DNA from: a bacterium
GTDB taxonomy: Bacteria > UBA10199 > JAIBAG01
DNA length: 64,000 nt
NCBI GenBank assembly: GCA_019695305.1
Contig: JAIBAG010000016.1
Span: 1,161 to 65,160 of the forward strand
Reading direction: 5' to 3'
Made by a program: the position numbers and the translations under genes. Under the pieces are notes generated by a model. That model did not search any database, was not told the DNA's origin, and was given only the letters and a program-made list of their open reading frames with translations. Below are positions 15,850-36,095 of this stretch, one piece after another (position 1 is the first letter of the stretch; each line of letters begins with the position of its first letter).

Positions 15850-18174
15850 ATGGATGCTACGGAAGCTATTAATAAGGGAGAAGAAGCCTATCCTTCCTTG
15901 ACCATTTTATCCGGCCCGGATGAGGGCTTGTTTATTGCCCTCACTGGAAAAGAACAAGTTATTGGCCGTTCACGCCGTTCGGCATCCATCCTTTTAGAAG
16001 ATACGTCTGTTTCCCGGGTTCATGCTCGCATTACCAGTAAAGACGGCAATTTTTTTGTGACCGATATGGAAAGTCGCAATGGAGTTGCGCTCAATGGTAA
16101 CCGCATTAAACCTAACAGCGAAACTCCTTTAAAACATCTCGATCAAATTAAAGTGGGCTTGTATATTTTGCGTTTTAATGAGCGCAAACCCACTAGCGAA
16201 GAAGCTGCCAAATCTACCGTTTATTCAGATATTCCATTGCCCAAAAAGAAAGAGAACCCAAGCGCTTTTGACGATATTACCATTTCCGATAAAGTGCCTG
16301 AAGAACCTAAACCTATTGCTCCCGTGCCAGAGGTGGCACCAGAAAGCGTAAAAAAAGAGGAAGAGGTTTTACCGCCCCAAACTGAGGCTGCTACCGAAGC
16401 TAAAGAAGCCGAAGAAATTTTAAATTCATTACCGATTGAAGAAGGCGTTGTAGCCAGTGAAGATGCCGTTAGTTTAGAAGAAGAAAGTTACGGCAAGGGC
16501 ATTCGCAATGTTTTTATTATTATCAGTGTTATTTGTGCGCTTACCGGGTTGGTTTATTTTTTATCACATGGATTTTCACAGAAAAAGAAAGAAAATGTAG
16601 AAGCGCTTGAGACTCCTCCAGAGGTGACTGCCATCAATACGGAGGATGTAGAAAAACATCTAGAAGTGCCGGAGGCTGTGAAACCCGAAGAGCTAAAGGC
16701 GCCTGAAGAAACACAGCCTGCTGCTCAAGAAGCTAATGCTCCTGCGCCCACTATCCAAACGCCACCCGATGTTGTAACGCCGCCAGCAAATACTATTGAA
16801 AACGTTCCTGTAGTTAATTCTCAGCCGCAAGTATTACCTCCCAGTAGCGCCGATGAGCGTACCATGAATTTTATTTTAGATTTACAAACGCAACCCATGC
16901 CTGCGCGCGTTTATTTTAACGATCAAGATTTAGGACAATCGCCCGTAAAGGCGCCGCTTCAATTAAAACCCGGTGTGTCTTACAGTGTGGTTGCTAATTT
17001 TGATTTGCCAGACTTAAACGATCAGTATCAATATCGTGCTTCTTTTACTCCCGATGCGTCAAAAGAAGTGATTACATTAAATGTATCGCCCGATATTGGT
17101 TTGATGAAAGTGATGCTCTTGCCGCGTGATGTAGATTTTTACATGGAAGGATATTACGCCTACGACAAAGAAAAAGCGCATCCGGTAAAACTCACCAACA
17201 TTATTTATGGTAAACCTGTTTATGTTCCGTTTGGACATTATGTGATTGAACTAAAAGAACGCGTTAAAGTAGGTGACACCGATACATATGTAAGTGAAGT
17301 GCGCTATCACAGAGAAATAGATATTAATGCCGATAACCGTACGGTGGAGTTATCGGTGAAGGAACGCGATATCCAGTTTTTTCCGGCACGTATTACATCA
17401 GAACCGAGTGGTGCTCAGGTATTTTTAGATGGGAAACAAGTTGGGAAAACGCCCTATGCAGGAGAATTGCCCTTAGGGCGCCACGATTTAAAATTAACGC
17501 TTGATGGCTATTTTGATAACGACAGCACGCTGGATATGCGTGTGAATAGTCCGTATGAAGCTAAAATTGTGATGAAGACTTCCAAGGTAGGCCAAATGAT
17601 TGCCAAGGCCAAGGAAGAAAAACAAAATGGACAATATCAGGATGCTATCAATAATTTAATTGAGGCTTTAAAAATTGGAGGCAGTGATAAAGAAAAAGCG
17701 GATATCCGCATTTTACTAGGCGACTCGTATTATTTAATGGGGGATTACGATAGGGCTTTTAGTTTTTATGAAGAAATGGCTGCCGAAACCCCTTACCGTT
17801 ACCGGGCTCTTTTGGGAAAAGCCCGTATTCTTAATATTAGAGGGGATAAACAAGGAAGTTTACGTTTACTTTCCGAAATATTTTTAAATTTAACGCCCCA
17901 AGATCCACTTTTAAATGAGGCAGCTAGCCTTTTTAAACAACTCTCTCCTCTTAAATCGGTGATGTATATCACTACCGAACCCAAAGGCGCTACTGTGATG
18001 GTAAACGGACGCGATATGGGTCAAAAAAGCCCTGTTCTCTTATTTGACCTGGGTTTTGGTAATTACCGTATTGAGCTCTCTAAACCCGGTTTTCAAAGTG
18101 CCCAGGTACAAAAAAACCTCAAGGTGAGTGAGTTTGTGCCGGTAGTGGTAAAACTTAAACCCGATAGTTTGTAA
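15850..18174 (+). CDS. FHA-domain membrane protein with periplasmic PEGA domains and TPR repeats
   Basis: 774 aa. N-terminal FHA (VIGRS...ILLEDTSVSRVHARI....FFVTDMESRNGVALNG). TM VFIIISVICALTGLVYFL. Pro/Glu-rich linker. PEGA-like ITSEPSGAQVFLDGKQVGKTPY and ITTEPKGATVMVNGRDMGQ. TPR between them. Confidence 0.8.
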   Translation: MDATEAINKGEEAYPSLTILSGPDEGLFIALTGKEQVIGRSRRSASILLEDTSVSRVHARITSKDGNFFVTDMESRNGVALNGNRIKPNSETPLKHLDQIKVGLYILRFNERKPTSEEAAKSTVYSDIPLPKKKENPSAFDDITISDKVPEEPKPIAPVPEVAPESVKKEEEVLPPQTEAATEAKEAEEILNSLPIEEGVVASEDAVSLEEESYGKGIRNVFIIISVICALTGLVYFLSHGFSQKKKENVEALETPPEVTAINTEDVEKHLEVPEAVKPEELKAPEETQPAAQEANAPAPTIQTPPDVVTPPANTIENVPVVNSQPQVLPPSSADERTMNFILDLQTQPMPARVYFNDQDLGQSPVKAPLQLKPGVSYSVVANFDLPDLNDQYQYRASFTPDASKEVITLNVSPDIGLMKVMLLPRDVDFYMEGYYAYDKEKAHPVKLTNIIYGKPVYVPFGHYVIELKERVKVGDTDTYVSEVRYHREIDINADNRTVELSVKERDIQFFPARITSEPSGAQVFLDGKQVGKTPYAGELPLGRHDLKLTLDGYFDNDSTLDMRVNSPYEAKIVMKTSKVGQMIAKAKEEKQNGQYQDAINNLIEALKIGGSDKEKADIRILLGDSYYLMGDYDRAFSFYEEMAAETPYRYRALLGKARILNIRGDKQGSLRLLSEIFLNLTPQDPLLNEAASLFKQLSPLKSVMYITTEPKGATVMVNGRDMGQKSPVLLFDLGFGNYRIELSKPGFQSAQVQKNLKVSEFVPVVVKLKPDSL

Positions 18175-18220: not shown

Positions 18221-19627
18221 ATGATTCGCACAAAAATTATTTGTACCTCTGGTCCTAGTGTTGACTCCCCTGATAAAATGCAGGCGCTGGTAGAGGCGGG
18301 CATGTCATTAATTCGCATTAACTGTTCACATGGTGCTATTGCCGACAGGCAAAAACAACTGGCTATTATTCGTGGCGTTGAAAAAAAAATGAACATCCCC
18401 ATTGGTATTATGGCCGATTTGCAAGGGCCTAAACTGCGTGTGGCTAAACTTGCGCAGCATCTCGATTTACACCGTGACGAAGTATGGAAATTATCACCAA
18501 GCGAAAAACAAGATCAGGTTAAAAAAGTAATTCCTGTAGATTACAAGCGCATTGCGCAGGCTGTAGTTCCGGGTGATATGCTGTATATGGATGATGGTCT
18601 TATTCAAACGGTTGTAGTTAAAAAAAATAAGGCCGATGTGTGGGTTAAAATTATTCACGGTGGAATTTTGGAAAGCCGCAAAGGCATTAATATCCCCAAC
18701 TTTAAAGCGCATAATCCTATTCTTAACAGTAAAGACAAAGAAGATTTGAAATGGGCCTTAGCGCAAAAACTCGATTTTATTGCTGTGTCGTTTGTGCGTA
18801 CGGTAAAAGATATAAAAGACGTGCGCAAATTTATAGCGCAACATTCAAGCGAACATGTACCTCTTGTAATTGCTAAAATTGAAAAGCCCGAAGCTGTAGA
18901 TAATTTGGACGGTATTATTAAAGAAAGCGATGGTATTTTGGTGGCCAGAGGAGATTTGGGAATTGAGTTGTCGCCCGAGCGTGTGCCGGTAGTGCAAAAG
19001 CAAATTATTGAACAGTGCCGTTTGCTGCAAAAGCCTGTTATTGTGGCAACACAAATGCTGGATAGCATGCGCTACAATCCACGTCCTACACGTGCCGAGG
19101 TGAGTGATGTAGCAAGTTCTATTTATGCCGGTGCCGATGCGGTGATGCTAACCGGCGAAACCTCCAGTGGTAAATATCCTATTAAAGCTACCCAAATGAT
19201 TTCTAAAATTGTTTCCGAGGTAGAAACACACATGGAGCTTAAGAGTTTTTTTAAACGCGCCAGTGATTTTGGTGTTTCTCAATATTGGGATGCCTTTGTA
19301 TTTAATGTGATGACCATGGCGTCGGATATTAAAGCCAAGGCTATAGTTGTGCTGGTAAAAAACGGGCATATCACCAAAATATTATCTAAAATGCATCCCA
19401 AGCAGCCCGTTTATTCTATTGCTCCCAATCCGGCCAGCCATCGCAAGCTTACTTTATTTTGGGGCGTGTATCCGTTAGAGGTATTTCATAGCCATCTTGA
19501 AAAACGTATTGATGGCGGGCTTGCCATTTTGCGTAAAAAGAAAGTGGTTAAAAAAGGCGAGAAACTTATTTTTGTGTACCGCGATTATAAAACCGATAAT
19601 CTTAATTTAAAAGTGATGGAGTGTTAA
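18221..19627 (+). CDS. pyk: Pyruvate kinase
   Basis: 468 aa. MIRTKIICTSGP, IRINCSHG, ADLQGPKLR, VARGDLGIE and MLTGETSSGKYP motifs. Confidence 0.92.
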   Translation: MIRTKIICTSGPSVDSPDKMQALVEAGMSLIRINCSHGAIADRQKQLAIIRGVEKKMNIPIGIMADLQGPKLRVAKLAQHLDLHRDEVWKLSPSEKQDQVKKVIPVDYKRIAQAVVPGDMLYMDDGLIQTVVVKKNKADVWVKIIHGGILESRKGINIPNFKAHNPILNSKDKEDLKWALAQKLDFIAVSFVRTVKDIKDVRKFIAQHSSEHVPLVIAKIEKPEAVDNLDGIIKESDGILVARGDLGIELSPERVPVVQKQIIEQCRLLQKPVIVATQMLDSMRYNPRPTRAEVSDVASSIYAGADAVMLTGETSSGKYPIKATQMISKIVSEVETHMELKSFFKRASDFGVSQYWDAFVFNVMTMASDIKAKAIVVLVKNGHITKILSKMHPKQPVYSIAPNPASHRKLTLFWGVYPLEVFHSHLEKRIDGGLAILRKKKVVKKGEKLIFVYRDYKTDNLNLKVMEC

Positions 19628-19634: not shown

Positions 19635-19934
19635 ATGAAAAATCAAAATCAACAATCACCCCAAATTCCGGCCATGCGTTATCCTGCTATTGAAAAGCTT
19701 ATTGAAACCGAAGCCTTTGAGCCGGTTAACCGGTCGTTTACTACCACTTATGAAATGTTGGAGCGTTTTTTAAAGGATAAGTCGGGGGGGTTAAAAAAGC
19801 AGGGGCAAATCAGACAAGCCCTAAAAGCCTACGATTTAACCACCGATCTTATCAAAGAACTGCTGAAAGTTAAGCAAGAACTTCTTAAAAATCAAAAGGA
19901 TAGCCCTGATAAAAAAAGTCCTCAAAAAAAATGA
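19635..19934 (+). CDS. Small Lys-rich hypothetical protein
   Basis: 99-aa ORF 8 nt after pyk. No recognisable domain. Confidence 0.45.
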   Translation: MKNQNQQSPQIPAMRYPAIEKLIETEAFEPVNRSFTTTYEMLERFLKDKSGGLKKQGQIRQALKAYDLTTDLIKELLKVKQELLKNQKDSPDKKSPQKK

Positions 19935-19942: not shown

Positions 19943-19971
19943 ACAACTTAAGGGGGAGCTCTTTCCGATAA
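19943..19971 (+). promoter_or_regulatory. Candidate sigma-28 (FliA-family) promoter upstream of the SctF-like gene
   Basis: ACAACTT-N15-CCGATAA. The -10 matches the sigma-28 consensus GCCGATAA at 7 of 8 positions. The same bipartite motif with identical spacing occurs at 22130-22158. The -35 part deviates from TAAAGTTT. Confidence 0.35.
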
Positions 19972-20094: not shown

Positions 20095-20631
20095 ATGGCA
20101 AATACTCAACCGATTGAAACCAACTATGTAGATATGACGGGTGCTACAACTACGGCCCAGCAACGTGCGGTTTCGGGAACCAATTTTTACGATACCATGA
20201 ACCAGCTGATGTACTACGCCGGTCCTACAGCCGCTCAAACGGCTGCTTATACGGGTCATGATGTAGTGTCGGCTGCCATCACGGCTTCGGCCGGTGGCTA
20301 CGGCGGTGGTTATGCCGGTTACCCCGGGATGTCTACCGGCGGTATGGGTTATACGGGTTATCCTTCGGCTTCGGTAGGCTTTAACTCGGGCGGTGTGGGT
20401 GCCAGTGTTTCGTACGGTGGGTCATCTAGTGCTGTTTCACGCAGTACGGGCACTTCTGATACCATGAGCTTAGTGAGTGATCAATTATACCAAGGCCAAG
20501 TACAAAACATGGAGATGTTGGTACTTCAAAACCAGGTAGCCGATGTAAACCGTACCTGGCAAATTGCCTCTACCGTAAGCGCCAATAGCGAACAAACCAA
20601 AATGGCGATGGTAAGAAATATGAGAGGTTAA
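20095..20631 (+). CDS. Needle-filament (SctF)-like protein with long Gly/Tyr/Ser-rich N-terminal extension
   Basis: 178 aa. The C-terminal ~45 aa (LVLQNQVADVNRTWQIASTVSANSEQTKMAMVRNMRG) follows the SctF pattern (..LQ..(I/V)N+W..I.ST+....+..I+QNFR). AAGGAG RBS. Strong terminator after it. It sits at the fliE/sctF position before a TPR chaperone and sctJ. Confidence 0.5.
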   Translation: MANTQPIETNYVDMTGATTTAQQRAVSGTNFYDTMNQLMYYAGPTAAQTAAYTGHDVVSAAITASAGGYGGGYAGYPGMSTGGMGYTGYPSASVGFNSGGVGASVSYGGSSSAVSRSTGTSDTMSLVSDQLYQGQVQNMEMLVLQNQVADVNRTWQIASTVSANSEQTKMAMVRNMRG

Positions 20632-20660
20632 GATTAGCCTCTAAAAGCAGAAGTCACAAG

Positions 20661-20696
20661 ATCGCGGTCCCGCCCCAGGCGGGACCGCGATTTTTG
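20661..20696 (+). terminator. Rho-independent terminator
   Basis: ATCGCGGTCCCGCC-CCA-GGCGGGACCGCGAT forms a 14-bp stem, followed by TTTTTG. Confidence 0.85.
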
Positions 20697-20757
20697 CTTT
20701 GGGGCTTATTAAACTTGTGTCATACTCCTAAAAGTATCTGATTTAAGAGGGAGAATT

Positions 20758-21192
20758 ATGATTGATGTTCCGCGTGATGATTTGGTGTTGATGATGGAAG
20801 CCGGTTATATTTATCTGGCCATGGGCAAGCTTTCTGAAGCGCGCCAGGTATTTGAAGGCATTTCAGTATTAGCGCCTCAAAACGAAATTCCACTTGTGGC
20901 TATTTCCAACGTTTATTTTGCTCAAAAAAAATATTTGCAGGCTATCCGTACCTTAAAAGAAGCTGTGGAACTTAATCCCAAAAGTGCCTTTGCCAAATCG
21001 CATTTGGGTGAAGCCTATTTGTTTTACGGTAAAAAAGATGAAGCTATTGAAACATTAAATGAGGCTTCCAAGCTAGACCCCAGTGGCAAGCCGGGTGATT
21101 TTGCCCGCTCGCTTTTAGAACTGATCAAAACGGGTTATGACCCTGTGGCGCTTACCAAGCAAGCCAAAGAAATGAAAAAAGGTGCCAAATGA
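20758..21192 (+). CDS. TPR-type T3SS chaperone
   Basis: 144 aa, all TPR. Lies between the needle-like gene and sctJ, the position of yscG-type needle chaperones. Overlaps the sctJ start by 4 nt. Confidence 0.6.
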   Translation: MIDVPRDDLVLMMEAGYIYLAMGKLSEARQVFEGISVLAPQNEIPLVAISNVYFAQKKYLQAIRTLKEAVELNPKSAFAKSHLGEAYLFYGKKDEAIETLNEASKLDPSGKPGDFARSLLELIKTGYDPVALTKQAKEMKKGAK

Positions 21193-22079
21193 CAACACGT
21201 CTTCTCTCTTGCTTAGCTGTTCTTCTTTTTATAGCTGCTTGTAACGAGCAGGTTACCTTAGTGCAGGATCTCGATCAAAAAAATACCAATGCTATTTTGT
21301 TTGTGCTGGCTAAAAATGGCATTAGCGCCCAAAAACAAGTGGTAGAAAAACAGCAGGAAAAAAGTTGGGTGGTAACGGTTGCCTCTGGCGATGAAGTGCG
21401 TGCACGTGAAATTTTGATGATGAACCAGCTTCCCAAGGAGCGCCAGCTGGGGCTTTCCGGGGTTTGTAAGGATGCGGGTTTAATTCCTACTCCTAAAACC
21501 GAAAAGTGTCGCGAGTTGCTGGCATTAAAAGGTGAAATTATTAACTCACTTGAATCTATTCAGGGAGTGGTGAGTGCCGATGTAGTATTAAACGTTCCCG
21601 AAAAAGAAGATTTCCCTGACGAAAATGCGCCACCTAAAAGGCCTACAGCTTCAGTGGTGATAGAGGTATCGGCGGAGTTTGGCAAAAATATTACCGAATC
21701 GAAGGTGCAGCAATTTGTGGCCAATGCGGTAACTGGCATGGATGTAAGAGATGTGGCTGTTATCATCAGTATGCCCGGGCAAAAGAAAGATACACCCACT
21801 GACACAACGGCTCAAATTGAAACTGGTGATAAAGTATCTCCCGAAAATGAAGATGTAGTTCAAAGCGCCGATATGACTTCGGTGGGGGGCTTATCCATGG
21901 ATGAAGCTTCGGCCAAAAAATTTAAAATTATTGCTGTTTTCTTTTTGTTTGTGTTTGTCCTGCTTTCCGCAGGCCTCATTGCTGTTCTTTTCCAAATGGC
22001 TCGTTTAAGACAAAAAAATGAAAAGCCTATGAATACCTTGCCCGAGCCGGTGGCTAACAGGGATGTGGTAAATACATAA
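21189..22079 (+). CDS. sctJ: T3SS inner-membrane ring lipoprotein SctJ (YscJ/PrgK/HrcJ family)
   Basis: 296 aa. Lipobox LLFIAAC. YscJ/FliF-family N-terminal pattern (L..DLDQK.TNAILFVLAKNGISAQK, EVRAREILMMNQLPKE). C-terminal TM FFLFVFVLLSAGLIAVLF. Confidence 0.8.
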   Translation: MTTRLLSCLAVLLFIAACNEQVTLVQDLDQKNTNAILFVLAKNGISAQKQVVEKQQEKSWVVTVASGDEVRAREILMMNQLPKERQLGLSGVCKDAGLIPTPKTEKCRELLALKGEIINSLESIQGVVSADVVLNVPEKEDFPDENAPPKRPTASVVIEVSAEFGKNITESKVQQFVANAVTGMDVRDVAVIISMPGQKKDTPTDTTAQIETGDKVSPENEDVVQSADMTSVGGLSMDEASAKKFKIIAVFFLFVFVLLSAGLIAVLFQMARLRQKNEKPMNTLPEPVANRDVVNT

Positions 22080-22129: not shown

Positions 22130-22158
22130 ACAACTTTGGCCTCTCATTTTGTCGATAA
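22130..22158 (+). promoter_or_regulatory. Candidate sigma-28 (FliA-family) promoter
   Basis: ACAACTT-N15-TCGATAA (-10 GTCGATAA), the same architecture as 19943-19971. About 20 nt upstream of the ATG at 22179. Confidence 0.35.
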
Positions 22159-22178: not shown

Positions 22179-22631
22179 ATGAGTTCTTCACCACAAATTA
22201 CAGGCCCTTCGTACTTAAGAATGGATTATTCGCGTGCGGATAAATACGTTTATCCCGAACCGCCCAAACTTACTTTTTGGCAAAAATTGGGTCGTGGTGT
22301 GGGTAAGTTTATGTCGTGGGCTGGCCCTATTGGCGCTGCTGTTACTGCGGTAGCCTTGCCAGGTGTAGGTTTACCGTTAGCTGCTGGTATTTATGGTTTA
22401 TCGCGCTATTCGCAAGATAAAGTGGCCCAGTCTTATCAAAAAGATCAAATTGCCATGGCTAACCAGCCCATGCCTCAAAATATCACCATGCCCGGTTTAT
22501 TTGCGTCTACGCCTCCCAGTGCGGGAAGTATCACTACCGATTTTATTGCCCCCCGTTCATTTGATGCTAATATTTCGGATGTGATTATGAACCGTAACGA
22601 AACCGAAGTTCAAATGCGCTCTGGTTTTTAA
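22179..22631 (+). CDS. Hypothetical protein with central hairpin-like hydrophobic segment
   Basis: 150 aa from the ATG at 22179 (GAGAGG SD 8 nt upstream; the ORF track starts at a TTG at 22149). Hydrophobic FMSWAGPIGAAVTAVALPGVGLPLAAGIYGL. Confidence 0.55.
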   Translation: MSSSPQITGPSYLRMDYSRADKYVYPEPPKLTFWQKLGRGVGKFMSWAGPIGAAVTAVALPGVGLPLAAGIYGLSRYSQDKVAQSYQKDQIAMANQPMPQNITMPGLFASTPPSAGSITTDFIAPRSFDANISDVIMNRNETEVQMRSGF

Positions 22632-22785: not shown

Positions 22786-22824
22786 GAGTCCGATACCAGT
22801 CTCAAAATCGGACTCCAGTCTCAC
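22786..22824. promoter_or_regulatory. Inverted repeat GAGTCCGAT-N12-ATCGGACTC with two direct CAGTCTCA copies; candidate UAS
   Basis: About 130-160 bp upstream of the sigma-54 promoter at 22950, with an AT-rich tract between. Shares AGTCTCA with the 7368 palindrome. Confidence 0.35.
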
Positions 22825-22949
22825 AAAGTGGGGGGTATAAACCCATTGATTGGGATACAAGATAGAAAAGGACTGAGCTTTTTTGTGGTAAGTTATTGAA
22901 ATAATTTAATTTTATTTTTTATTCAAAACTTTTAAAAGATACTCTTATT

Positions 22950-22965
22950 TGGCATGTGAAATGCT
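22950..22965 (+). promoter_or_regulatory. Sigma-54 (-24/-12) type promoter upstream of the fliA-like/sctKLNOP operon
   Basis: TGGCAT-GTGAA-ATGCT with correct GG/GC spacing. 35 nt upstream of the ATG at 23000. Confidence 0.55.
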
Positions 22966-22999
22966 CTAAGTAATAAAGTAACTTTTAAAAGGGGTTCAC

Positions 23000-23830
23000 A
23001 TGGTCATGCAAAAGCAAAAGAAGGTGGAAAAAGTGGCGAAAGAGGCAAAACAGCCTGTAGCACCAGCTCCTCAAAAAGCACCTGCTGTTAAAGGGCCGGC
23101 TGAGGACTTAATTGAAAAGTACATTCCTTTTGCGTCTTCTATTGCTAATAAAATTGCGCGCTCGCTTTCATCGGATGCTGATTACGATGATATTTTGTGT
23201 AATGCCCGTTTGGGCTTACTGGAAGCTGCCCGCCGTTTTGATGACCGTTTCAATGTAGATTTTAAAACATTTGCCTACTACCGTATTAAAGGCGCTATTT
23301 ATGACGGTTTGCGTAAAACGGGCTGGATTCCTCGTTCCATCTATACCAAATTTAAAATGGAACAAGCCGCCAATGAATATTTTAAAGGTGTTACCGAACG
23401 CATTATGGATTCGGCCGATTCCATTAAAAGTGATTTGGACATGTTAAGTGATAAAGTAAGCCAGATGGCTTCTGTGTATGTGATGTCGCTTGATAACATG
23501 GAAGAATATGAAGTGGAAGATAAGTCGGCTAAGCGCGATATTGAGCATAAGGCCGAGTTCCAGAAAATTAAGGAAAAAATGCGGGATGCTATTGAAGGCT
23601 TGCCCGAGAAAGAACGTAAGCTTGTAAAAATGTATTATTTCCAAAACAAGACTTTGCAGGAAATTGGAGAACGTTTAAACTTATCTAAGTCGTGGACCTC
23701 GCGTTTGCACGCCCGCTCGCTGGATTTGCTGATGAAAAAGCTGTCTGGCATTGGTGGCGATATGACGCTGGGTGAAGATTTTACGTTTGATGAAGCCGAT
23801 GTTTCGGCTGATTTAGGAGTAAGAGCGTAA
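23000..23830 (+). CDS. fliA: RNA polymerase sigma factor, FliA/WhiG (sigma-28) family
   Basis: 276 aa. Region 2 (DYDDILCNARLGLLEAARRFD...FKTFAYYRIKGAIYDGLRK). Region 4 (LPEKERKLVKMYYFQNKTLQEIGERLNLSKSWTSRLHARSL). Confidence 0.8.
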   Translation: MVMQKQKKVEKVAKEAKQPVAPAPQKAPAVKGPAEDLIEKYIPFASSIANKIARSLSSDADYDDILCNARLGLLEAARRFDDRFNVDFKTFAYYRIKGAIYDGLRKTGWIPRSIYTKFKMEQAANEYFKGVTERIMDSADSIKSDLDMLSDKVSQMASVYVMSLDNMEEYEVEDKSAKRDIEHKAEFQKIKEKMRDAIEGLPEKERKLVKMYYFQNKTLQEIGERLNLSKSWTSRLHARSLDLLMKKLSGIGGDMTLGEDFTFDEADVSADLGVRA

Positions 23831-23836: not shown

Positions 23837-24307
23837 ATGGATCCTATTGTTGCCAAACTGAATGATGCCTTAAATAAAAAGGTTCAAGAGTCGATTAAGC
23901 CTCAGGGCGAAGGTGTATCGTTTCAAAACACCCTAGACGACAAAATCACCTCCCGTTTTATCGATCGTTTAAAAGACGATGCCAAAATTGATGTTGGTCA
24001 AAACATGTCTATTGTGTCGGCTGATGATATTAAAATTGAAACAACCAACCCAGAGCTGGATACCAATAAAATCTTTTCGGCATCCGATCAGATGGAAAAT
24101 ATGTTCAAAGAAATGAACAACGGCTTGTTGGGTATGGATTCGGCCCTTGAAACTATTGCTGCTCCCAATACTAAACTTTCTTATCAAGACTGCTTAAAGC
24201 TTCAAATGTTTACTGCCCATACGGGTTTAATGGCTGAAGCTTTTTCTAAATTTACAGACGGTTTAACTCGCGGTATAACAACCATTCTACAAACTCAGGC
24301 TGGTTAA
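23837..24307 (+). CDS. Hypothetical hydrophilic protein; possible inner-rod SctI-like, or alternatively an anti-sigma factor
   Basis: 156 aa, 6 nt after the sigma gene. The C-terminal helix LKLQMFTAHTGLMAEAFSKFTDGLTRGITTILQTQ loosely resembles SctI/PrgJ C-termini. No firm assignment. Confidence 0.3.
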   Translation: MDPIVAKLNDALNKKVQESIKPQGEGVSFQNTLDDKITSRFIDRLKDDAKIDVGQNMSIVSADDIKIETTNPELDTNKIFSASDQMENMFKEMNNGLLGMDSALETIAAPNTKLSYQDCLKLQMFTAHTGLMAEAFSKFTDGLTRGITTILQTQAG

Positions 24308-24366: not shown

Positions 24367-25299
24367 ATGGCTCTTAGTCTTCGAAAAAAATCATTCATCA
24401 TAATTTCAATGCTGCTTGACGCCGAGGGGACCGAAGCTCTTTTTACTTGTTTTCCTCCTGATCAACAAAATTCTCTTAAAGAAGGTTTATCGTTCTTAAA
24501 ACAAAGTACCAAAAATGGTGATCCCAAGGCTTTGGCTTTAGAGCTTAAAAAAGTACAGGCTTTAAGCCAAAAATCGGTACTGGGTGAAGTTCATCCCGAT
24601 TGGATTATGGAATTGCTCATGAAAGAACCGCCACGTTTGGTGGCGACAGTGCTAAGATATCTTTCCGGTGAGCAGGTTCGGTATATATTAGAGCATTTAC
24701 CCGAAAGTGTGATGGCCAGCCTTCCGCCGTTAGATCAAACCTTTTCTATTCGCACCGAGGTTATTGATATTTTAAAACGAAAATTTGAAAGCTATTTTGA
24801 TTCTTTTATAGAGCGCGAATTGCCAGCCGGTCTAGACCGTTTTGAAACCTTATGTGTGCATTCGTTTCACGACTTGGAGCTTCTTTTTAAAGATATTGGT
24901 TTTAAGGAAATGGCCATGGCCTTTGCTACTCTTAATGAAAAAGCTATCCAGGCCATATTGTCGCGCCTTCCCTTAGAAGATTCCGAAAATCTTAAAATTC
25001 ATATTGCCCAGCGTGGCGATGTAGTATTGGATCGCTTGAAACGGGCACAAAATAATTTGCTGGCCTCCGAAATGAAGCGCTCGGAGTACCTTATTTTAGA
25101 ACTGGGTTTATATGTGTACTCCAAGGCCGTTATGCCCCACCAGGCCGAATACGCAAAAAGGATTGTTTATAAATTTCCGCGTGAAGTGGGAAAGCAGCTT
25201 AAAAAGTATCTGGATCGTAACATGCCGCACAACCAAGATATGGGGGTAAAGCGCTATCAGGGTGAGATTGTTGATAGCTTAAAACGCCTCCAAAATTAG
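24367..25299 (+). CDS. FliG-like protein at the SctK position
   Basis: 310 aa. LMKEPPRLVATVLRYLSGEQVRYILEHLPESV resembles the FliG EHPQTIA..L..L....A..VL..LP segment. HSFHDLELLF..KEMAMAFATLNEKAIQAILSRL.......L......G.V.LDRLKRAQ resembles the FliG C-domain MFVFEDL..KDLALALKGA..ELREKFLSNM........L...G.VRL.DVEEAQ. Immediately upstream of sctL. Confidence 0.6.
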   Translation: MALSLRKKSFIIISMLLDAEGTEALFTCFPPDQQNSLKEGLSFLKQSTKNGDPKALALELKKVQALSQKSVLGEVHPDWIMELLMKEPPRLVATVLRYLSGEQVRYILEHLPESVMASLPPLDQTFSIRTEVIDILKRKFESYFDSFIERELPAGLDRFETLCVHSFHDLELLFKDIGFKEMAMAFATLNEKAIQAILSRLPLEDSENLKIHIAQRGDVVLDRLKRAQNNLLASEMKRSEYLILELGLYVYSKAVMPHQAEYAKRIVYKFPREVGKQLKKYLDRNMPHNQDMGVKRYQGEIVDSLKRLQN

Positions 25300-25336: not shown

Positions 25337-26026
25337 ATGACCGGAAAAATAGTAAAACGCCAAGATGTGAACGAAAAACTCGATATTACCGATCAGGTGC
25401 ATATGGATACGGCCGCAGCTTCTGTATCGGCGGGGCGCAATGTAATTCGCAAGGATGATTTGGAGTCGGTAGGGAAAGCTAATGCTATTATTGATAAAGC
25501 CGTTGCAGAGGCCGCTATTATTAAAAGGCAAGCTAACGATTTATTGGCCAAAGTAGAAGAAGAAATAAAAATTAAAAAAGAACAAGGCTATGAAGAAGGT
25601 AAAAAGGCGGGAGCACGTGAAGTAAGTGAGTTTTTAATAAAAGCCAAACGACATAAAGAAAAAATGTTCCAAGATTTGGAGCCAGATCTCATTAAATTAG
25701 TTTATGACATTTCCGAAAAAATTATTGGTAAAGATTTAAGCGAACGTGAAGGTGCCATCGTCGATTTAATCCGCCAAGCGCTGTCAACTTCACTGGGCCA
25801 AAAAATTGTAGTGGTGGTGCATCCCGCCGATTTACAAGTTGTAAAAGCTAATCAACCGCAGTTGTTGCAGGCTCTTGATGCGACCTGTACCTTACAAATT
25901 CGTGCCGACGAACGCGTAAAACCAAAAGGTTGTTTTATTGAAACTGAAATTGGAACCATTGACGCCGAGCTTGAAACGCAACTCACCATTATTCGTCAAG
26001 CCTTAGGATTGGAACCCAATGCATGA
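25337..26026 (+). CDS. sctL: T3SS stator protein SctL (FliH/YscL family)
   Basis: 229 aa. Coiled-coil N-terminus (EEEIKIKKEQGYEEGKKAG) and a FliH-type C-domain. 4-nt overlap with sctN. Confidence 0.8.
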   Translation: MTGKIVKRQDVNEKLDITDQVHMDTAAASVSAGRNVIRKDDLESVGKANAIIDKAVAEAAIIKRQANDLLAKVEEEIKIKKEQGYEEGKKAGAREVSEFLIKAKRHKEKMFQDLEPDLIKLVYDISEKIIGKDLSEREGAIVDLIRQALSTSLGQKIVVVVHPADLQVVKANQPQLLQALDATCTLQIRADERVKPKGCFIETEIGTIDAELETQLTIIRQALGLEPNA

Positions 26027-27357
26027 CAAGCCCCGACGACATCATCATTGATCTTAAAAAATACCGTACCCGTATTGCCAATTTAAATCCGTATCGTGTG
26101 AAGGGTAAAGTGGTAGAGCTTACCGGACTTGTGGTCAAAGCCATTGTGCCCAATGTGCGCGTAGGAGAGTTATGTCTTATTGAATCACGTCACAAAAATA
26201 AACCTATTAAAGCCGAAGTGGTAGGATTTAAAGACAACACCGTGCTGCTGATGCCGCTGGGTGAGTTGGAAGGTATTGGCCCTGGCAACGATGTTATTCC
26301 TACCGGTAATTGTCTGATGGTACCTGTGGGTAACGAACTGTTAGGACGTATTTTAGACGGTTTGGGCGAACCCATCGATACGGCCCAAAAAGGACCTCTT
26401 AAATGCCGCGAGTATTATCCTGTACACAATAGCCCCCCTGATCCTCTCACACGTAAACGTGTGCTCAAGCCTATTTCGGTAGGAGTAAAAGCTATCGATT
26501 CTATGCTGACAGCTGGTGAAGGTCAGAGAATGGGTTTATTTGCGGCGGCCGGTGTGGGTAAATCAGTTCTAATGGGTATGATTGCGCGCAACACAGAAGC
26601 CGACATTAACGTGATTTGTTTGGTGGGGGAGCGGGGACGAGAATTGCGAGATTTTTTGGAACAAGATTTAGGTGAGGAAGGCTTAAAGCGCTCTATTGTG
26701 GTGTGCTCTACATCCGATCAGCCTTCCCTGGTGCGTTCTAAAGCGGCCTATGTGGCAACGGCTATTGCCGAGTATTATCGCGACCAAGGTAAAAAAGTTT
26801 TATTAATGATGGATTCTGTAACGCGCTTTGCCCGCGCGCTTCGTGAAATTGGTTTGGCTGTGGGGGAACCCCCTGCGCGTCAGGGTTTTACGCCTTCCGT
26901 TTTTTCCACTCTTCCAAAATTGCTCGAACGAGCCGGTAATTCCGATAAAGGATCTATCACCGCTTTTTATACTGTGCTGGTAGAAGGCGACGATATGAAC
27001 GAACCTGTAGCCGATGAAGTGCGTTCTATTTTGGATGGGCACATTATTCTCTCACGTGATTTAGCCAATCGCGGTCAATATCCCGCTATTAACGTTTCGG
27101 AATCCATCAGTCGTGTGATGAGTAATATTGTGGATCAAGAACATTTGGATGCGTCGCGGAAATTAAAAGAAGTGGTAGCGAATTACGAAAAAGAACGTGA
27201 TCTCATTTTAATTGGCGCGTACGAGGCGGGTTCTAACCCGCAGGTGGATTATGCGATTGAGAAGATTGATGAGGTTAATAATTTTTTGAAGCAGGGGATG
27301 TATGATGAGATTGGTTTAGTGGAGGCGGTTGATCTTTTGAAATCTATTTTTGTTTGA
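26023..27357 (+). CDS. sctN: T3SS ATPase SctN (FliI/YscN family)
   Basis: 444 aa. Walker A GLFAAAGVGKSVL. Walker B VLLMMDSVTRFA. Typical EGDDMNEPVADEVRSILDGHI.LSR.LA.RG.YPAI. Confidence 0.95.
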   Translation: MTSPDDIIIDLKKYRTRIANLNPYRVKGKVVELTGLVVKAIVPNVRVGELCLIESRHKNKPIKAEVVGFKDNTVLLMPLGELEGIGPGNDVIPTGNCLMVPVGNELLGRILDGLGEPIDTAQKGPLKCREYYPVHNSPPDPLTRKRVLKPISVGVKAIDSMLTAGEGQRMGLFAAAGVGKSVLMGMIARNTEADINVICLVGERGRELRDFLEQDLGEEGLKRSIVVCSTSDQPSLVRSKAAYVATAIAEYYRDQGKKVLLMMDSVTRFARALREIGLAVGEPPARQGFTPSVFSTLPKLLERAGNSDKGSITAFYTVLVEGDDMNEPVADEVRSILDGHIILSRDLANRGQYPAINVSESISRVMSNIVDQEHLDASRKLKEVVANYEKERDLILIGAYEAGSNPQVDYAIEKIDEVNNFLKQGMYDEIGLVEAVDLLKSIFV

Positions 27358-27458: not shown

Positions 27459-27983
27459 ATGTTTTTTACGATGCCGAAGAAAGAAAAATACAGATTAGAG
27501 CCTCTTTTGAAAGTGAAGGAGAGAGCCAGACGAACCGCAGAGATTGCCTTGGCTAAGGCTATTAAACTTTTAAAGCAAGAACAGGAAAAGCTGGAATTAC
27601 TTAAAGGAAAAAAGACAGAGATTGAAGAAAAGAAAGAGAATACAAAAAGGGACTTACGCTCTAAAGTTTCGGAAGGCGGTTTAAAAATTAGACAAAGTGA
27701 GTTTCATTTTAATTTTATCCGTAAATTAGATGAAGATATTGAAAGCGTGAGCAGAGAAATTAAAGATCAGGAAGATGTGGTGGCAGAGGCGGATAAAAAA
27801 TTAAAAAGAGCGAAACGTGATTACATTGATGCGGCTACAGAGCTAGATGTTATGAAGAAACACAAAGAGTTATGGACCAAGAAATTAACCAAGAAATTAT
27901 CGGATAAAGAAAATAAAGAAATGGGTGAGCTTGGCAATGTTTTGTTTCAAATAACCAAAGGTCGCGAGGGTGCGGCTGGTTAA
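27459..27983 (+). CDS. sctO: T3SS stalk protein SctO (YscO/FliJ-like coiled coil)
   Basis: 174 aa. Highly charged coiled coil (YRLEPLLKVKERARR.AE.AL). Position directly after sctN. Alternative ATG at 27471. Confidence 0.65.
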   Translation: MFFTMPKKEKYRLEPLLKVKERARRTAEIALAKAIKLLKQEQEKLELLKGKKTEIEEKKENTKRDLRSKVSEGGLKIRQSEFHFNFIRKLDEDIESVSREIKDQEDVVAEADKKLKRAKRDYIDAATELDVMKKHKELWTKKLTKKLSDKENKEMGELGNVLFQITKGREGAAG

Positions 27984-27999: not shown

Positions 28000-28878
28000 A
28001 TGTCAATTGATTCAATAGATAATAACTCCGGCGATGATGACCGCCGGGCCGACCGCAAAAAAAGTGAAAATAAGTCGGCCGAAGAACGAAAATCGCTGGA
28101 GCGGGCTGGTCGTGATTTTAAAACGCGTCTTGAAAGCCAGTCGAAATCCCGTGAGATTTTTGAAAAGCAGCAAACTGAAAAATTTGTACAAAAAAATCAG
28201 GAAAATCTTTTAAATAAAATTTTAGAAACCCAACGTAAAAAAGAAGAAAACGCCAAGCAAGACCAGCATGAGCTTGATAAAAAGGAAGATAATAGAAAAG
28301 ACGCTAAAAAAGATGCTCGCCAAGCCTCGCAAAAGAAAAATGCTGACGGTGAAACGCATAAAAGAGTGGAGTCACATACGTCACACCATGGCCAAAGCGA
28401 TGACCAGGAGAGCTCTTCTTTTTCACAGGGCTCTGGTAGTGGCGGTAGTGGTGGCGGAGGGCAGCAGAAAGAATTTTCGGGAGATAAAGATAATAACAAA
28501 GGTGGCCAAGAACAGTTGATGTCGAATGATGAAAAGGGAACCTGGATTGGTCAAAAACAAAAGGTTCAAAAGGCTGAATTTAAATTTGGGGCGGGAAAGA
28601 ATACACGTAATTTTTTAAAGGATGAGGAGATTAGTGAAATTGTACACCAAGTAGTAATTGCCACCTATAGTGATGGTAACAAGGAAGTGGAAATTGTTTT
28701 AAAGGATGATGTGTTTTATGGACTAAAAATGAAATTTGCTCAAGGCGATGACGGTGTAGATGTAACCTTTATTTGCCCTAATTTAACGGTAAAAGGACTT
28801 TTTATTTTAAATAAGGCCAAAATATTTTTTAAACTCCAAGAAAAGGGAATTAAGCTCGGTAAATTTGAAATCATGTAA
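28000..28878 (+). CDS. sctP: T3SS needle-length/substrate-switch protein SctP (FliK/YscP-like)
   Basis: 292 aa. Charged, low-complexity N-terminal two thirds (Gly/Ser tract GSGSGGSGGGGQQ). Globular C-terminal ~90 aa (EIVHQVVIATYSDGNKEVEIVLKDDVFYGLKMKF..DGVDVTF) resembling the FliK/T3S4 C-domain. Position after sctO. Confidence 0.5.
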   Translation: MSIDSIDNNSGDDDRRADRKKSENKSAEERKSLERAGRDFKTRLESQSKSREIFEKQQTEKFVQKNQENLLNKILETQRKKEENAKQDQHELDKKEDNRKDAKKDARQASQKKNADGETHKRVESHTSHHGQSDDQESSSFSQGSGSGGSGGGGQQKEFSGDKDNNKGGQEQLMSNDEKGTWIGQKQKVQKAEFKFGAGKNTRNFLKDEEISEIVHQVVIATYSDGNKEVEIVLKDDVFYGLKMKFAQGDDGVDVTFICPNLTVKGLFILNKAKIFFKLQEKGIKLGKFEIM

Positions 28879-28879
28879 C

Positions 28880-29548
28880 ATGCGTTTTCCTTTACTCTCA
28901 TCTTTTAAAAACTTCACCCCCGCTACCTTGCGTTTTTTTTCACTTTTATCTCTTGTTTTTTTAGCACTTGGTTTTTTTATTATTATTACCTGGCAACTTA
29001 AAAACGGTACCTGGCTTAGAGACTGGGACGAAGTGTTTATCAATTATTTGGTTTCATTAAGACGTGATTCATGGAATGGACCTATGGTTGATATCACGGC
29101 TTTGGGCTCTGTTACCATTGAAGTTGTACTTTGTACGGTTTCTTTTATTTTTTTGTGGCTTGTAAAACGTGAAACGGAAGCCCTGTTTTTGGTTGTCGCT
29201 GTGAGTGGAGCGGGTTTGTTATCACGTTTTTTAAAATTAATGGTAGGTCGAGAACGGCCCTCGGTGCCTCACTTGGTAGAAGTAGTTAATTTTTCTTATC
29301 CCAGCGGCCATGCGCTAACCACAACCGCTCTTTTTTTAGCGCTTGCGCTTCTTGCCTCTCGACATGTTCAAAATACAAGCTCGCGTGTTGTTTTATTTGT
29401 TATGGCTTTTATTTTAATGGGTTTAGTTTCTTTTTCGCGTCTTTATTTGGGAGTTCATTATTTAAGCGATGTATTAAGCGGGGTTTTTTTGGGAATTTCC
29501 TGGACTTTGTTTCTTACTCTTCTCTTTTTTAAAAAAAGAACACTATGA
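28880..29548 (+). CDS. PAP2-family lipid phosphatase
   Basis: About 222 aa from the ATG at 28880, 2 nt after the sctP stop. PAP2 motifs KLMVGRERP, PSGH and SRLYLGVHYLSD. Multiple TMs. Confidence 0.8.
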   Translation: MRFPLLSSFKNFTPATLRFFSLLSLVFLALGFFIIITWQLKNGTWLRDWDEVFINYLVSLRRDSWNGPMVDITALGSVTIEVVLCTVSFIFLWLVKRETEALFLVVAVSGAGLLSRFLKLMVGRERPSVPHLVEVVNFSYPSGHALTTTALFLALALLASRHVQNTSSRVVLFVMAFILMGLVSFSRLYLGVHYLSDVLSGVFLGISWTLFLTLLFFKKRTL

Positions 29549-30031
29549 ATGGGGAAGCCTTGATTCATCAATCATGGCGGGATAGCCTGTGATGCCATAG
29601 AGAGTGGTTTGATAGCCGCTTTTGTTTAATTTTTTGGTAAAGCGTTCTATATCTACAACAGCATTAAATTTTTTTTGTGCTGCTAAAAAAGCTAGTTTTA
29701 AAACCGCGTTTTGTTTGTCTTCGCAATTTTCAATAGTAATTTTACCGTTAGAGCGTTTGATGAGGGGTACTTGTTTATCACCTTTATCAAATAGAAAAAG
29801 ATTTTCTGCCTTTTTAAGAGTAATATTATAAGTTTCTTGAGCCGGTGCCACTGTGCTATCGTAACAAGATCCGCAATAAGTGCTGTGTTTTAAATTGTCG
29901 GGAATAATTTCTAAAAAGGAAAAAGAAGTATTGTCTAAAAACTGCGTGCAGTTTTTGCATAATATATGGTGGCACAAGCTACAGGTGTAGCTTTGTTTTA
30001 AATTAGATTTTAAACAGGAAGAACAAGTCAT
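29543..30031 (-). CDS. Cys-rich (zinc-ribbon-like) protein with YbjQ-like C-terminal region
   Basis: 162 aa. CxxC..CxxC..CxxC and CGSC motifs at the N-terminus. 4-nt overlap with the upstream MFS gene. Confidence 0.5.
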   Translation of the reverse strand: MTCSSCLKSNLKQSYTCSLCHHILCKNCTQFLDNTSFSFLEIIPDNLKHSTYCGSCYDSTVAPAQETYNITLKKAENLFLFDKGDKQVPLIKRSNGKITIENCEDKQNAVLKLAFLAAQKKFNAVVDIERFTKKLNKSGYQTTLYGITGYPAMIDESRLPHS

Positions 30032-31339: not shown

Positions 31340-32278
31340 ATGGCGCTCAAGGCCCAAGTTGAAACATTTCCATTTGATAAATTACCCCGATTCACGCGTG
31401 CAGAATGCGAAGTGGTTTCGTTTATGGCCAAATATTTTCCAGTGTCGTTTGCCGATTCTGCCCTCCTAGATCAGCTGGGGCGTTCTCTTAAAAAATATTT
31501 TGGTGATGCATTTTCAATTAATTTTGAAAATATGGAAGAAATTGCACTCGATAATTTAAACGCAAAAATTGCTGGCAAGTGTGTTGTGGCTGCCGTTTCC
31601 TTGACTCCCTATACCAAAAAGCTTATCATCACCTCCGATTTAGACTTAACAACAGCTATTATCGACAAAGCACTGGGTGGTGGCGGTGAAGTTCCTGAGG
31701 TTCCGGGCGAGTTGACTGCATTAGAAGAGGGCGTTCTCGAATTTGTGGCAGCCAAGGTGTTAAAAGCGCTCAATGGTGTTACGGCTAGTCCTTCACATCG
31801 TTTTATTTTAGAATCGCTTGAAACGCGGCGTTTTAAGTCGGAAGTACTTTATGTGTCTACCGAACGTTTTTATGTTCTGCGATTTTTGGCTGCTGTAAAC
31901 AACGTGTCGGGAATTATTGCTGTTCATATTCCGTTGTCGCTTTTGTTTGAAATGAAAGGACGTAGCGATATTTTTGCAGCTAACGAAAATATGCGCTATC
32001 AAACGCAACGTCTAAAAGATTTTGATAATTTAAGAACGGTGTTGTGGGGTGAGTTGGGGCATGTTTTGTTACACCCTCAAGATTTAAACATTTTAGACCG
32101 TGGTGATGTTGTTTTATTTGATGAAACTGATGCAAGTTTGATGGATGGAAAAGTAAAAGGAACTATTAAACTGCGTTTTGGTGATGGACGTGGAGCCGGT
32201 TTTGAGGCTTTTGTTGAAGCAGATCATACGTCCGATTATCAGGTAAAATTGGGTTCGATGTTATCTAAAGAGGAGTGA
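31340..32278 (+). CDS. sctQ: T3SS sorting-platform protein, SctQ N-terminal-type (FliM/HrcQa-like)
   Basis: 312 aa. LPRFTRAE......., GELTALEEGVLEFVAAKVL pattern typical of SctQ/FliM. Followed by a separate SpoA-domain gene with a GTGA overlap. Confidence 0.6.
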   Translation: MALKAQVETFPFDKLPRFTRAECEVVSFMAKYFPVSFADSALLDQLGRSLKKYFGDAFSINFENMEEIALDNLNAKIAGKCVVAAVSLTPYTKKLIITSDLDLTTAIIDKALGGGGEVPEVPGELTALEEGVLEFVAAKVLKALNGVTASPSHRFILESLETRRFKSEVLYVSTERFYVLRFLAAVNNVSGIIAVHIPLSLLFEMKGRSDIFAANENMRYQTQRLKDFDNLRTVLWGELGHVLLHPQDLNILDRGDVVLFDETDASLMDGKVKGTIKLRFGDGRGAGFEAFVEADHTSDYQVKLGSMLSKEE

Positions 32279-32742: not shown

Positions 32743-32765
32743 TTGTCGGTGATATTTTTTACTCC

Positions 32766-33083: not shown

Positions 33084-33088
33084 GGGGG

Positions 33089-33826: not shown

Positions 33827-33827
33827 T

Positions 33828-34094: not shown

Positions 34095-34107
34095 CAAACT
34101 CTTTGCC

Positions 34108-36038: not shown

Positions 36039-36095
36039 GTTTATTGGCTGAGGTAACGATAAATGATATCCTTAAGTACTAATAATGAGGGAATC

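Follow-up and report, generated by a model that had tools for sequence, protein, structure and literature searches.

The window analysed here, a stretch of 64,000 nucleotides (nt) of contig JAIBAG010000016.1 (assembly GCA_019695305.1) from a bacterium of the UBA10199 lineage, carries a gene for a FliA-like sigma factor in the midst of a cluster of type III secretion system (T3SS) genes, and it raises the question of whether a transcriptional cascade of the flagellar kind has been wired to a machine that is not a flagellum. An earlier note on this DNA had proposed such a flagellum-style hierarchy, and the proposal gains support from promoter types that recur in synteny, from an activator gene within the cluster and from the pairing of sigma factor and promoter motif in Acidobacteriota. 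Judging from sequence comparisons, we consider it probable that the locus encodes a transcriptional hierarchy in two steps that is dedicated to a flagellum-like, though non-flagellar, T3SS, and in which a sigma-54 promoter would switch on the sigma gene and the sigma factor would in turn switch on late, exported parts. Both promoter types occupy the same syntenic places in genomes that share only 47-67% identity in the sigma protein. The features at the centre of this hierarchy are the following.

22950..22965, + strand: predicted sigma-54 (-24/-12) promoter, TGGCATGTGAAATGCT, at the head of the sigma-factor operon, with the appropriate spacing and kept in 40 of 41 sequences
23000..23830, + strand: FliA/WhiG-like group-3 sigma factor of 276 amino acids (aa), with Pfam sigma-70 regions 2 and 4
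19944..19971, + strand: predicted sigma-28-type promoter A, before the needle-like gene; exact CAACTT-N16-CGATAA, syntenic in 26 loci
22131..22158, + strand: predicted sigma-28-type promoter B, before gene 22179; exact CAACTT-N16-CGATAA, syntenic in 23 loci and in 8 more by position weight matrix (PWM)
20095..20631, + strand: needle/filament-like subunit of 178 aa, Gly-rich in its middle and SctF-like at its C-terminus (...SN..K....IRN.R)
20660..20700, + strand: strong intrinsic terminator after the needle-like gene, a 15-bp GC stem followed by UUUUUGCUUU
22179..22631, + strand: conserved small protein of 150 aa with a central hydrophobic hairpin, matching no Pfam or NCBIfam family

Sigma-54 promoters have the consensus TGGCAC-N5-TTGCW. 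The + strand at 22950-22965 has the sequence TGGCATGTGAAATGCT, whose GG and GC doublets are spaced by 10 nt in keeping with that consensus; the element lies 35 nt 5' of the ATG at 23000, within an intergenic gap of 368 nt (22632-22999), and an AAGGGG ribosome-binding site precedes the ATG. The pattern TGGCAY-N5-WTGCW is found at three sites of the 64-kb window (7468, 22950 and 35080), 0.34 being expected from shuffled sequences. Each of the three is a + strand match in intergenic DNA, with a start codon 50-100 nt further on. A query with the sigma protein, limited to one genome per species, recovered 44 related loci (47-68% identity) from uncultured metagenome-assembled genomes (MAGs), several of them named UBA10199. 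When the window was compared with the 40 related loci that include enough upstream DNA, TGGC-N7-NTGC[A/T] was present 5' of the sigma orthologue in 40 of the 41 sequences, and the intergenic DNA around this element is unalignable among them. A scan with the strict pattern, which covered 46 related loci, 44 of them UBA10199-type, returned 47 matches: 32 precede the sigma gene, four precede divergently transcribed genes for a sigma-54 enhancer-binding protein (bEBP; L038, L039, L041 and L044), and six are unassigned + strand sites, five of which lie 3' of sctT like the site at 35080 in the window. The near-consensus promoter that the earlier note had placed at the head of a FliA-family sigma gene is borne out by this spacing and conservation, the family being more exactly FliA/WhiG-like.

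The protein encoded at 23000-23830 spans sigma regions 2 to 4, has a long linker and belongs to group 3, not to the extracytoplasmic function (ECF, group 4) type represented by HrpL. Its top family is FliA_WhiG (TIGR02479, 139.8 bits), with SigB/F/G at 85 bits and RpoH at 47.5 bits clearly behind, and its best solved relatives are WhiG/FliA (E ~3e-24, 89 bits, residues 31-252 aligned), followed by SigF (6e-11, 46 bits). It keeps the FliA/WhiG-type region 2-3 stretch F-T-A..RI.GA..D.LR..W.PRS, and its relatives are named FliA or 'sigma-70 family' by public pipelines. Throughout these relatives the cluster retains a single gene order, namely sctD, a gene in the sctE position, the needle-like gene, a TPR gene, sctJ, the hairpin-protein gene, the sigma gene, sctI-like, fliG-like, sctL, sctN, sctO, sctP-like, fliM/N/O-like and sctRST, so the sigma gene has a fixed, syntenic place in this conserved type III secretion cluster. 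Directly 3' of it, the sctI-like open reading frame (ORF) is found in 39 related loci.

The sigma-28-like boxes previously noticed at the needle-like and 22179 genes turned out to be exact copies of a bipartite motif, CAACTT-N16-CGATAA, which occurs at 19944 and 22131 in the window and would be expected about 0.008 times (12 fixed bases in 128 kb, two strands). In the related loci (664 kb), the same motif with at most one mismatch has 70 coding-strand sites at a spacer of 16, and other combinations of spacer and strand (12-20, either strand) have 0-8 sites each. Counted from the other half-site, 75 of the 440 CGATAA sites have [C/A]AAC at offset -22, and 1-10 have it at any other offset. A G at -36, a position outside the search pattern, is found in 60 of 73 sites. 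The resulting consensus is a[A/C]G[C/A]AACTTt-N15-(c)CGATAAt, with G[C/A]AACTT-N16-CGATAA as its core; the -10 half CGATAA does not vary among the sites found, where it is most often preceded by a C (36/73). This half equals the sigma-28 -10 consensus GCCGATAA, in which CGATAA is the defining -10 element according to work on the sigma-28 promoter and the FliA-FlgM structure (PMC12784957). Ordinary flagellar loci in this data set show a TAAA peak at the same offset, -22 from CGATAA. The sites of the related loci fall into four classes.

Class A: before the needle-like gene, 26 loci
Class B: before the hairpin-protein gene, 23 loci and 8 more by PWM
Class C: before the sctI-like gene, 7 loci and 1 more by PWM
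Class D: after sctT, 11 loci

The sites lie 20-100 nt 5' of start codons and are always co-oriented with the gene. No sigma-54 motif is found ahead of class A or class B genes, and no sigma-28-type site within 300 nt of the sigma gene. Weaker variants of the motif, GC[G/A]CAACTCTTGAATCC...TCGAAAAT on the - strand, were seen in L030 (3610), L031 (3518) and L034 (3621), where they precede a divergent TPR/double-FHA operon 5' of sctD. A TCGATAA 5' of the 41852 gene of the window was rejected as a site, its -35 half being missing.

Both genes that carry these promoters in the window are candidates for exported late parts. The family profile of 20095 matches 7y6c_F, a fragment of a needle protein, at E 0.0037 and, at E 0.3-1.6, the C-termini of PrgI/MxiH. 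The terminator behind this gene has a dG of -46.8 kcal/mol (z -9.0) and, with promoter A in front, makes the needle-like gene a predicted monocistronic unit, like a flagellin gene. Its predicted 5' leader (19972-20094) is long, ~117 nt as compared with 20-100 nt in relatives, and contains hairpins with no Rfam match. The product of 22179 is a candidate late substrate.

A sigma factor of this type occurs together with the half-sites of the motif outside the UBA10199-type bacteria as well. Searches with the ATPase of the cluster recovered related clusters in Acidobacteriota, 64-67% identical in that protein.

L049 2633-20972: Acidobacteriota MAG, related T3SS cluster
L110 8525-19269: Acidobacteriota MAG, related T3SS cluster

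In L049 (66% G+C) the order is Ser/Thr kinase, sigma, sctI-like, sctJ, sctL, sctN, sctO and sctP/FliK-like, and continues with an FHA::FliN fusion, fliO, sctRST and sctU. Its sigma factor is 33% identical to that of the window and again has WhiG/FliA as best solved relatives. In L049 and L110 together, 6 of the 11 CGATAA sites bear [C/A]AAC at one fixed offset (-20), and these [C/A]AAC-N16-CGATAA sites precede sctI-like and Gly-rich filament-like genes. The co-occurrence of this sigma type with these half-sites in a second phylum provides the best available evidence that the sigma factor reads the motif.

For the first step, the window offers a candidate activator, a candidate signal input and a candidate enhancer region.

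38218..39639, - strand: bEBP (Pfam Sigma54_activat 2.6e-69, FHA 2.7e-20, HTH_8)
39641..41746, - strand: Ser/Thr protein kinase with PEGA domains (Pfam Pkinase 4.1e-41, PEGA 1.6e-32)
22789..22847, no strand assigned: candidate enhancer (upstream activating sequence) region, ~105-160 nt 5' of the -24 element

The AAA+ domain of the bEBP has the Walker A sequence GETGTGKE and a loop of the GAFTGA type, GSFTGA; the HTH is Fis-type, and we infer that the protein acts on the promoter at 22950. An orthologue, 68% identical, lies ~5 kb past sctT in L047, and the divergent bEBP genes of L038, L039, L041 and L044 each have a sigma-54 motif of their own. The kinase gene stands directly 5' of the bEBP gene on the same strand, and the kinase is the likely input to the FHA domain of the bEBP. 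FHA and PEGA domains recur in the sctD-like protein (FHA and PEGA), the kinase (PEGA) and the bEBP (FHA), and in relatives (L001 1102-2130; L034 1161-2216) a double-FHA protein and large TPR proteins are encoded divergently, 5' of sctD. This hints at phospho-threonine signalling that ties assembly to transcription. Matches obtained 5' of sctD in many relatives by tblastn with the bEBP were discarded, as they correspond to the double-FHA protein and not to an activator.

In the relatives, GGGG-N5-9-CCCC palindromes are concentrated upstream of the sigma-54 motifs: 22 of 68 are within the 260 nt 5' of a motif, which is 2.1% of the sequence (~15-fold enrichment), frequently between -107 and -180 and in some cases as tandem copies. 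The window counterpart is a degenerate GGGG-N-CCC palindrome, GTGGGGGGTATAAACCCAT, at 22829-22847, next to a tandem 19-nt repeat, TCCGATACCAGTCTCAAAA / TCGGACTCCAGTCTCACAA, at 22789-22826. AGTCTCA repeats, considered as a shared enhancer, were rejected: they are present 5' of 7468 and 22950 and not of 35080, and they are unconserved in relatives.

The same activator could serve a further promoter of the window, which the earlier note had likewise placed before acidic-protein and chaperone genes; it is a strict match to the sigma-54 pattern, intergenic and on the + strand.

35080..35095, + strand: predicted second sigma-54 promoter, TGGCATGGAGGTTGCT, preceded by a terminator-like hairpin (34947-34963) behind sctT
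35147-35986 / 36063-36641, + strand: acidic protein / TPR protein, pair 1 (Pfam TPR; acidic protein without family match)
36654-37478 / 37481-38137, + strand: acidic protein / TPR protein, pair 2 (Pfam TPR; acidic protein without family match)

The element heads two acidic-protein genes, each with a TPR gene next to it, and the acidic proteins are likely secreted substrates, with their TPR partners as class-II-type chaperones. In the relatives this position behind sctT is occupied by either promoter type: a sigma-54 motif is present in L035, L036, L039, L041 and L042 (and, under a relaxed pattern, in L044), and a sigma-28-type promoter in L007, L009, L012, L014-L017, L021, L024 and L029. The promoter class at this position changes with lineage, which indicates that the wiring of the substrate genes is evolutionarily labile. 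The genes behind these promoters are not alignable between lineages, and the pattern suggests that they encode fast-evolving substrates with an interchangeable promoter class.

The elements, their placement and their conservation are established by sequence and comparison; from them we infer that sigma-54 and the cluster sigma factor use these sites in turn and that the kinase feeds into the first step. A signal would be received through the PEGA-domain Ser/Thr kinase and passed to the FHA domain of the adjacent bEBP, which would then remodel sigma-54 RNA polymerase at 22950. The resulting transcript would comprise the FliA-like sigma gene, sctI-like, fliG-like, sctL, sctN, sctO and sctP-like, and in relatives it would extend through fliM/N/O-like and sctRST; in the window genome, the same bEBP and sigma-54 may also drive the promoter at 35080 and with it the acidic-protein/TPR-chaperone genes. 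In the second step, the cluster sigma factor would direct RNA polymerase to the G[C/A]AACTT-N16-CGATAA promoters, giving the exported late parts, that is the needle/filament-like subunit (20095) and the hairpin-membrane protein (22179), and in other lineages also the product of the sctI-like gene and those of the variable genes behind sctT.

What machine such a cascade would serve can be judged from the remaining genes of the cluster.

15850..18174, + strand: sctD-like (FHA, PEGA, TPR), from domain scans and synteny
18221..19627, + strand: pyruvate kinase, inserted between the sctD-like gene and the gene in the sctE position
19635..19934, + strand: small helical protein of 99 aa in the sctE position, assigned by position only
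20758..21192, + strand: TPR protein in the sctG position, assigned by position only
21189..22079, + strand: sctJ, encoding a short lipoprotein (TIGR02544)
23837..24307, + strand: sctI-like (inner-rod-like) protein of 156 aa, a weak assignment
24367..25299, + strand: FliG homologue (Pfam FliG_M 29.3 bits, FliG_C 31.6 bits, both above cut-off)
25337..26026, + strand: sctL/fliH (Pfam, NCBIfam)
26023..27357, + strand: sctN/fliI ATPase (Pfam, NCBIfam)
27459..27983, + strand: sctO, YscO-like (Pfam, NCBIfam)
28000..28878, + strand: sctP/fliK-like, from the C-terminal sequence only, judged by eye
28865..29548, + strand: PAP2 phosphatase (Pfam, NCBIfam)
within 28865..31251, after PAP2, - strand: an ORF without assigned identity and a major facilitator superfamily (MFS) transporter, an inserted block
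31340..34938, + strand: fliM-like, fliN/sctQ-C, fliO, sctR, sctS and sctT, from domain scans and synteny

The window contains the non-flagellar T3SS core genes sctJ, sctL, sctN, sctQ, sctR, sctS and sctT, the role of sctQ being filled by the fliM-like and fliN-like genes. In Ysc-type clusters the order yscD-E-F-G-J is known, as is the position of sctK, and that slot is occupied here by the FliG homologue, whose matches to FliG structures in the PDB are weak. The 23837 family profile matches the C-terminus of MxiI/SctI weakly (E 0.069), and a profile-to-PDB search with the 19635 family gave nothing meaningful, so that 'sctE-like' is a positional label. The operon predicted in the earlier note, running from the sigma gene through sctI-like, FliG-like, sctL, sctN, sctO and sctP genes, was found as listed, with the sctI-like and sctP-like genes weakly assigned. 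Its description of the machine as injectisome-like held in part: SctJ/SctD-type parts are present, whereas no sctU, sctV or secretin was found in the window and FliG/FliM/FliO-like parts are retained.

Two insertions in the conserved cluster are specific to the window, namely the pyruvate kinase gene and the PAP2/ORF/MFS block between sctP-like and fliM-like. In relatives the fliM/N/O-like and sctRST genes are contiguous with the sigma operon, and in the window this block separates them from it. A terminator-like hairpin follows PAP2 at 29600-29623, and the operon that starts from 22950 most likely stops behind PAP2 (~29.6 kb), short of sctT; the sole promoter candidate 5' of 31340 is a weak sigma-70-like match. 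A scan for sigma-70 promoters and terminators over 15.5-35.4 kb gave the same counts as shuffled sequences, except for the hairpins after sctT and PAP2, and was for this reason not used for defining operons.

The reading of the cluster as a non-flagellar system has to be weighed against the view that it is a reduced or remodelled flagellar gene set with an ordinary flagellar FliA, in which case the label of secretion system would be wrong. FliG-, FliM-, FliN- and FliO-like genes are indeed present, the FliQ and FliR models score as high as those of SctS and SctT, and the integrated microbial genomes resource (IMG) labels relatives of the sigma factor 'sigma factor for flagellar operon FliA'. 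The ATPase exceeds the cut-off of FliI_clade2 (639 vs 630 bits) and, after the Acidobacteriota, the nearest relatives recovered for it are Firmicutes flagellar FliI proteins (56-60% identity); nevertheless, it also exceeds the cut-off of SctN (620 vs 605 bits). The ring protein is an SctJ-type lipoprotein with 133.7 bits to TIGR02544 as compared with 25.5 bits to FliF, and it is accompanied by an FHA-type SctD-like protein, a YscO-like protein, subunits with SctF/SctI-type C-termini, TPR chaperone-like genes and the yscD-E-F-G-J order. Moreover, no rod, hook, flagellin, FliD, FliE or MotAB genes were found in the 64-kb window or among the Pfam-scanned ORFs of the related loci. On this balance we regard a flagellar identity of the cluster as unlikely.

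A doubt of similar size concerns the reader of the motif: G[C/A]AACTT-N16-CGATAA could be real and yet be recognized by another sigma factor or by a DNA-binding regulator with a bipartite site. The motif is assigned to the cluster sigma only by co-location and by the resemblance of its -10 half, the -35 half CAACTT differs from the canonical TAAAGTTT, with AA..TTT common to both, and the 139.8 bits of the sigma factor are below the curated TIGR02479 cut-off of 189.6, which is why we term it FliA/WhiG-like and not a certified FliA. What makes a different reader improbable is that CGATAA is the element that defines the sigma-28 -10 region, as cited above, that the spacing is strict, each site points the same way as its gene and lies as far from the start codon as a promoter would, and that the sigma factor retains the FliA/WhiG-type ...W.PRS... 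region 2-3. In addition, sigma type and half-sites recur together in another phylum at 66% G+C, where CGATAA is rare. Still less likely, in our view, is that both promoter types are used without forming a cascade, for instance because the sigma factor is held inactive or is made constitutively from another promoter and the sigma-54 promoter only boosts the apparatus genes, with a timing that is not hierarchical. Read-through from the 22131 promoter into the sigma gene could occur, since the hairpin after 22631 is A/T-rich and weak, and the sigma gene of the Acidobacteriota has no sigma-54 motif. Against an arrangement of this kind, in 40 of 41 sequences the sigma-54 element is the one conserved feature 5' of the sigma gene, and the two promoter types keep apart, as described for the sigma gene and for class A and B genes.

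Several further findings weigh against the two-step hierarchy or narrow its reach. A bEBP gene near the cluster was seen in a minority of the related loci only, because the flanks covered are short, and the enhancer candidates of the window are weak; some of the candidates, in relatives too, may instead be terminators of the gene upstream. Neither FlgM nor an RsiG anti-sigma factor was detected among the cluster ORFs (Pfam, NCBIfam) or by profile-to-PDB comparison of the 19635, 20095 and 23837 families; a FlgM-like checkpoint not having been found, a coupling of transcription to secretion is not supported. The lack of a sigma-54 motif before the L049 sigma gene indicates that the first step of the cascade would be specific to the UBA10199-type lineage. 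Neither promoter type was found ahead of sctD, the gene in the sctE position, the TPR-sctJ pair or, in the window, the block from fliM-like to sctT, and consequently the hierarchy does not span the whole machine. Domain scans of the ORFs in the 64-kb window found no sctU or sctV and no secretin (sctC) domain; in 48 UBA10199-type loci a tblastn search with the SctU of L049 gave no sctU, sctV not having been searched for in relatives; both genes may be located elsewhere in the genome. No RpoN box was found in the window or in 0.73 Mb of related loci, as is expected for T3SS neighbourhoods.

Cascades from sigma-54 to an alternative sigma factor are already known from flagella, with FliA, and from Hrp injectisomes, with the ECF factor HrpL. 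In the polar flagella of Vibrio, Pseudomonas, Campylobacter and Helicobacter, sigma-54 acts together with the bEBPs FlrA/FleQ and FlrC/FleR/FlgR ahead of FliA, which in turn transcribes flagellin and other late genes. The likeness to the present locus lies in the basal-body and export genes, which depend on sigma-54 there and are predicted to do so here, and in a FliA-type sigma factor for promoters ending in CGATAA in front of the exported distal subunit, a monocistronic gene with its own terminator. In contrast to polar flagella, the sigma-54 operon here opens with the sigma gene itself, within the gene cluster of a non-flagellar T3SS, the activator carries an FHA domain for input and is encoded beside a Ser/Thr kinase whereas theirs has a receiver domain, no FlgM was found in the cluster neighbourhood, and the -35 half is CAACTT instead of TAAAG.

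In the Hrp group I of Pseudomonas syringae and Erwinia, the bEBPs HrpR and HrpS together with sigma-54 activate the gene of the sigma factor HrpL, which transcribes T3SS promoters with a hrp box. Here too a sigma-54 promoter and a dedicated bEBP would turn on a T3SS-encoded alternative sigma factor that transcribes T3SS genes. However, HrpL is of the ECF type (group 4) and drives essentially all hrp/hrc and effector operons, whereas the sigma factor described here is a group-3 relative of FliA/WhiG whose sigma-28-type promoters are restricted to genes for needle-like and rod-like proteins and for a few substrates; the sigma-54 operon itself holds the core apparatus. Sigma-54 in plant pathogens has been reviewed (PMC8657755).

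Chlamydia possesses a non-flagellar T3SS and has retained sigma-54 as well as a FliA-type sigma-28, and its late-gene control by the two factors has been described (PMC7482065, PMC10597470, PMC12282069). A model has been proposed in which sigma-54 leads to the T3SS and thereby to release of sigma-28 (PMC10597470); by ChIP-seq, the only targets of sigma-28 are hctB and tsp, neither of which is a T3SS structural gene (PMC12282069). Unlike what is proposed for the sigma gene of the window, that of chlamydial sigma-28 is read by the housekeeping polymerase, and the sigma genes are located outside any T3SS operon with conserved promoters. By description, the locus also resembles the Myxococcales 'Myxo' non-flagellar T3SS (NF-T3SS, the needle-less T3SS*), which is deep-branching and belongs to a deltaproteobacteria-like lineage (PMC3459982, PMC10849154): in both there is no secretin in the locus, genes are dispersed, and the surroundings are rich in FHA proteins, Ser/Thr kinases and sigma-54 activators. 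The Myxo systems were reported to be without FliG and SctF and no cluster-encoded FliA-like sigma factor is described for them (PMC3459982, PMC10849154), in contrast to the FliG homologue, the FliM/FliO-like genes, the needle-like subunit and the sigma gene found here.

Searches of the literature on UBA10199 and T3SS, and on NF-T3SS with FliA and sigma-54, found nothing relevant. What appears to be new in these sequences is a group-3 FliA-like sigma factor that is fixed in a non-flagellar T3SS cluster and accompanied by conserved sigma-28-type promoters on needle-like and rod-like genes. This provides a testable regulon for an uncultured phylum, consisting of two promoter types, one sigma factor and one bEBP. 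For annotation, it means that FliA-like genes in such genomes should not count as evidence of flagella. Taken with the FliG/FliM/FliO-like genes that the cluster retains, the finding is directly relevant to the evolution of injectisome-like systems, and of their regulation, out of the flagellum. We may tentatively go further and hypothesize, while holding it to be rather less likely than the alternatives to it, that UBA10199-type bacteria and Acidobacteriota share an undescribed T3SS family placed between flagellum and injectisome, with SctJ/SctD-type rings and small needle-like and rod-like subunits on the one side and FliG (in the sctK slot), FliM/FliO-like parts and a FliA-type regulator, together with class-3-type promoters at the filament subunit, on the other. 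Abby and Rocha have proposed that the flagellum was exapted into the non-flagellar T3SS; if such a family exists, it would be a living snapshot of that exaptation, and the control of a distal subunit by FliA would be an ancestral flagellar trait kept in a non-flagellar system.

A few observations concern other parts of the window. The third near-consensus sigma-54 element, at 7468-7483, lies ahead of an IS200-like Y1 transposase ORF (7567-8541) with a C-terminal HTH. A perfect palindrome, ATGAGTCTCA-N2-TGAGACTCAT, is located at 7368-7389, ~80-100 nt 5' of this element, and 42-nt direct repeats at 7272-7313 and 7516-7557 flank the region. Rfam and tRNA scans of the window gave no match. At its left end, the ORF 128-6679, of 2183 aa, matches no Pfam family and has a G+C content above that of its surroundings; it could encode a giant secreted or surface protein.

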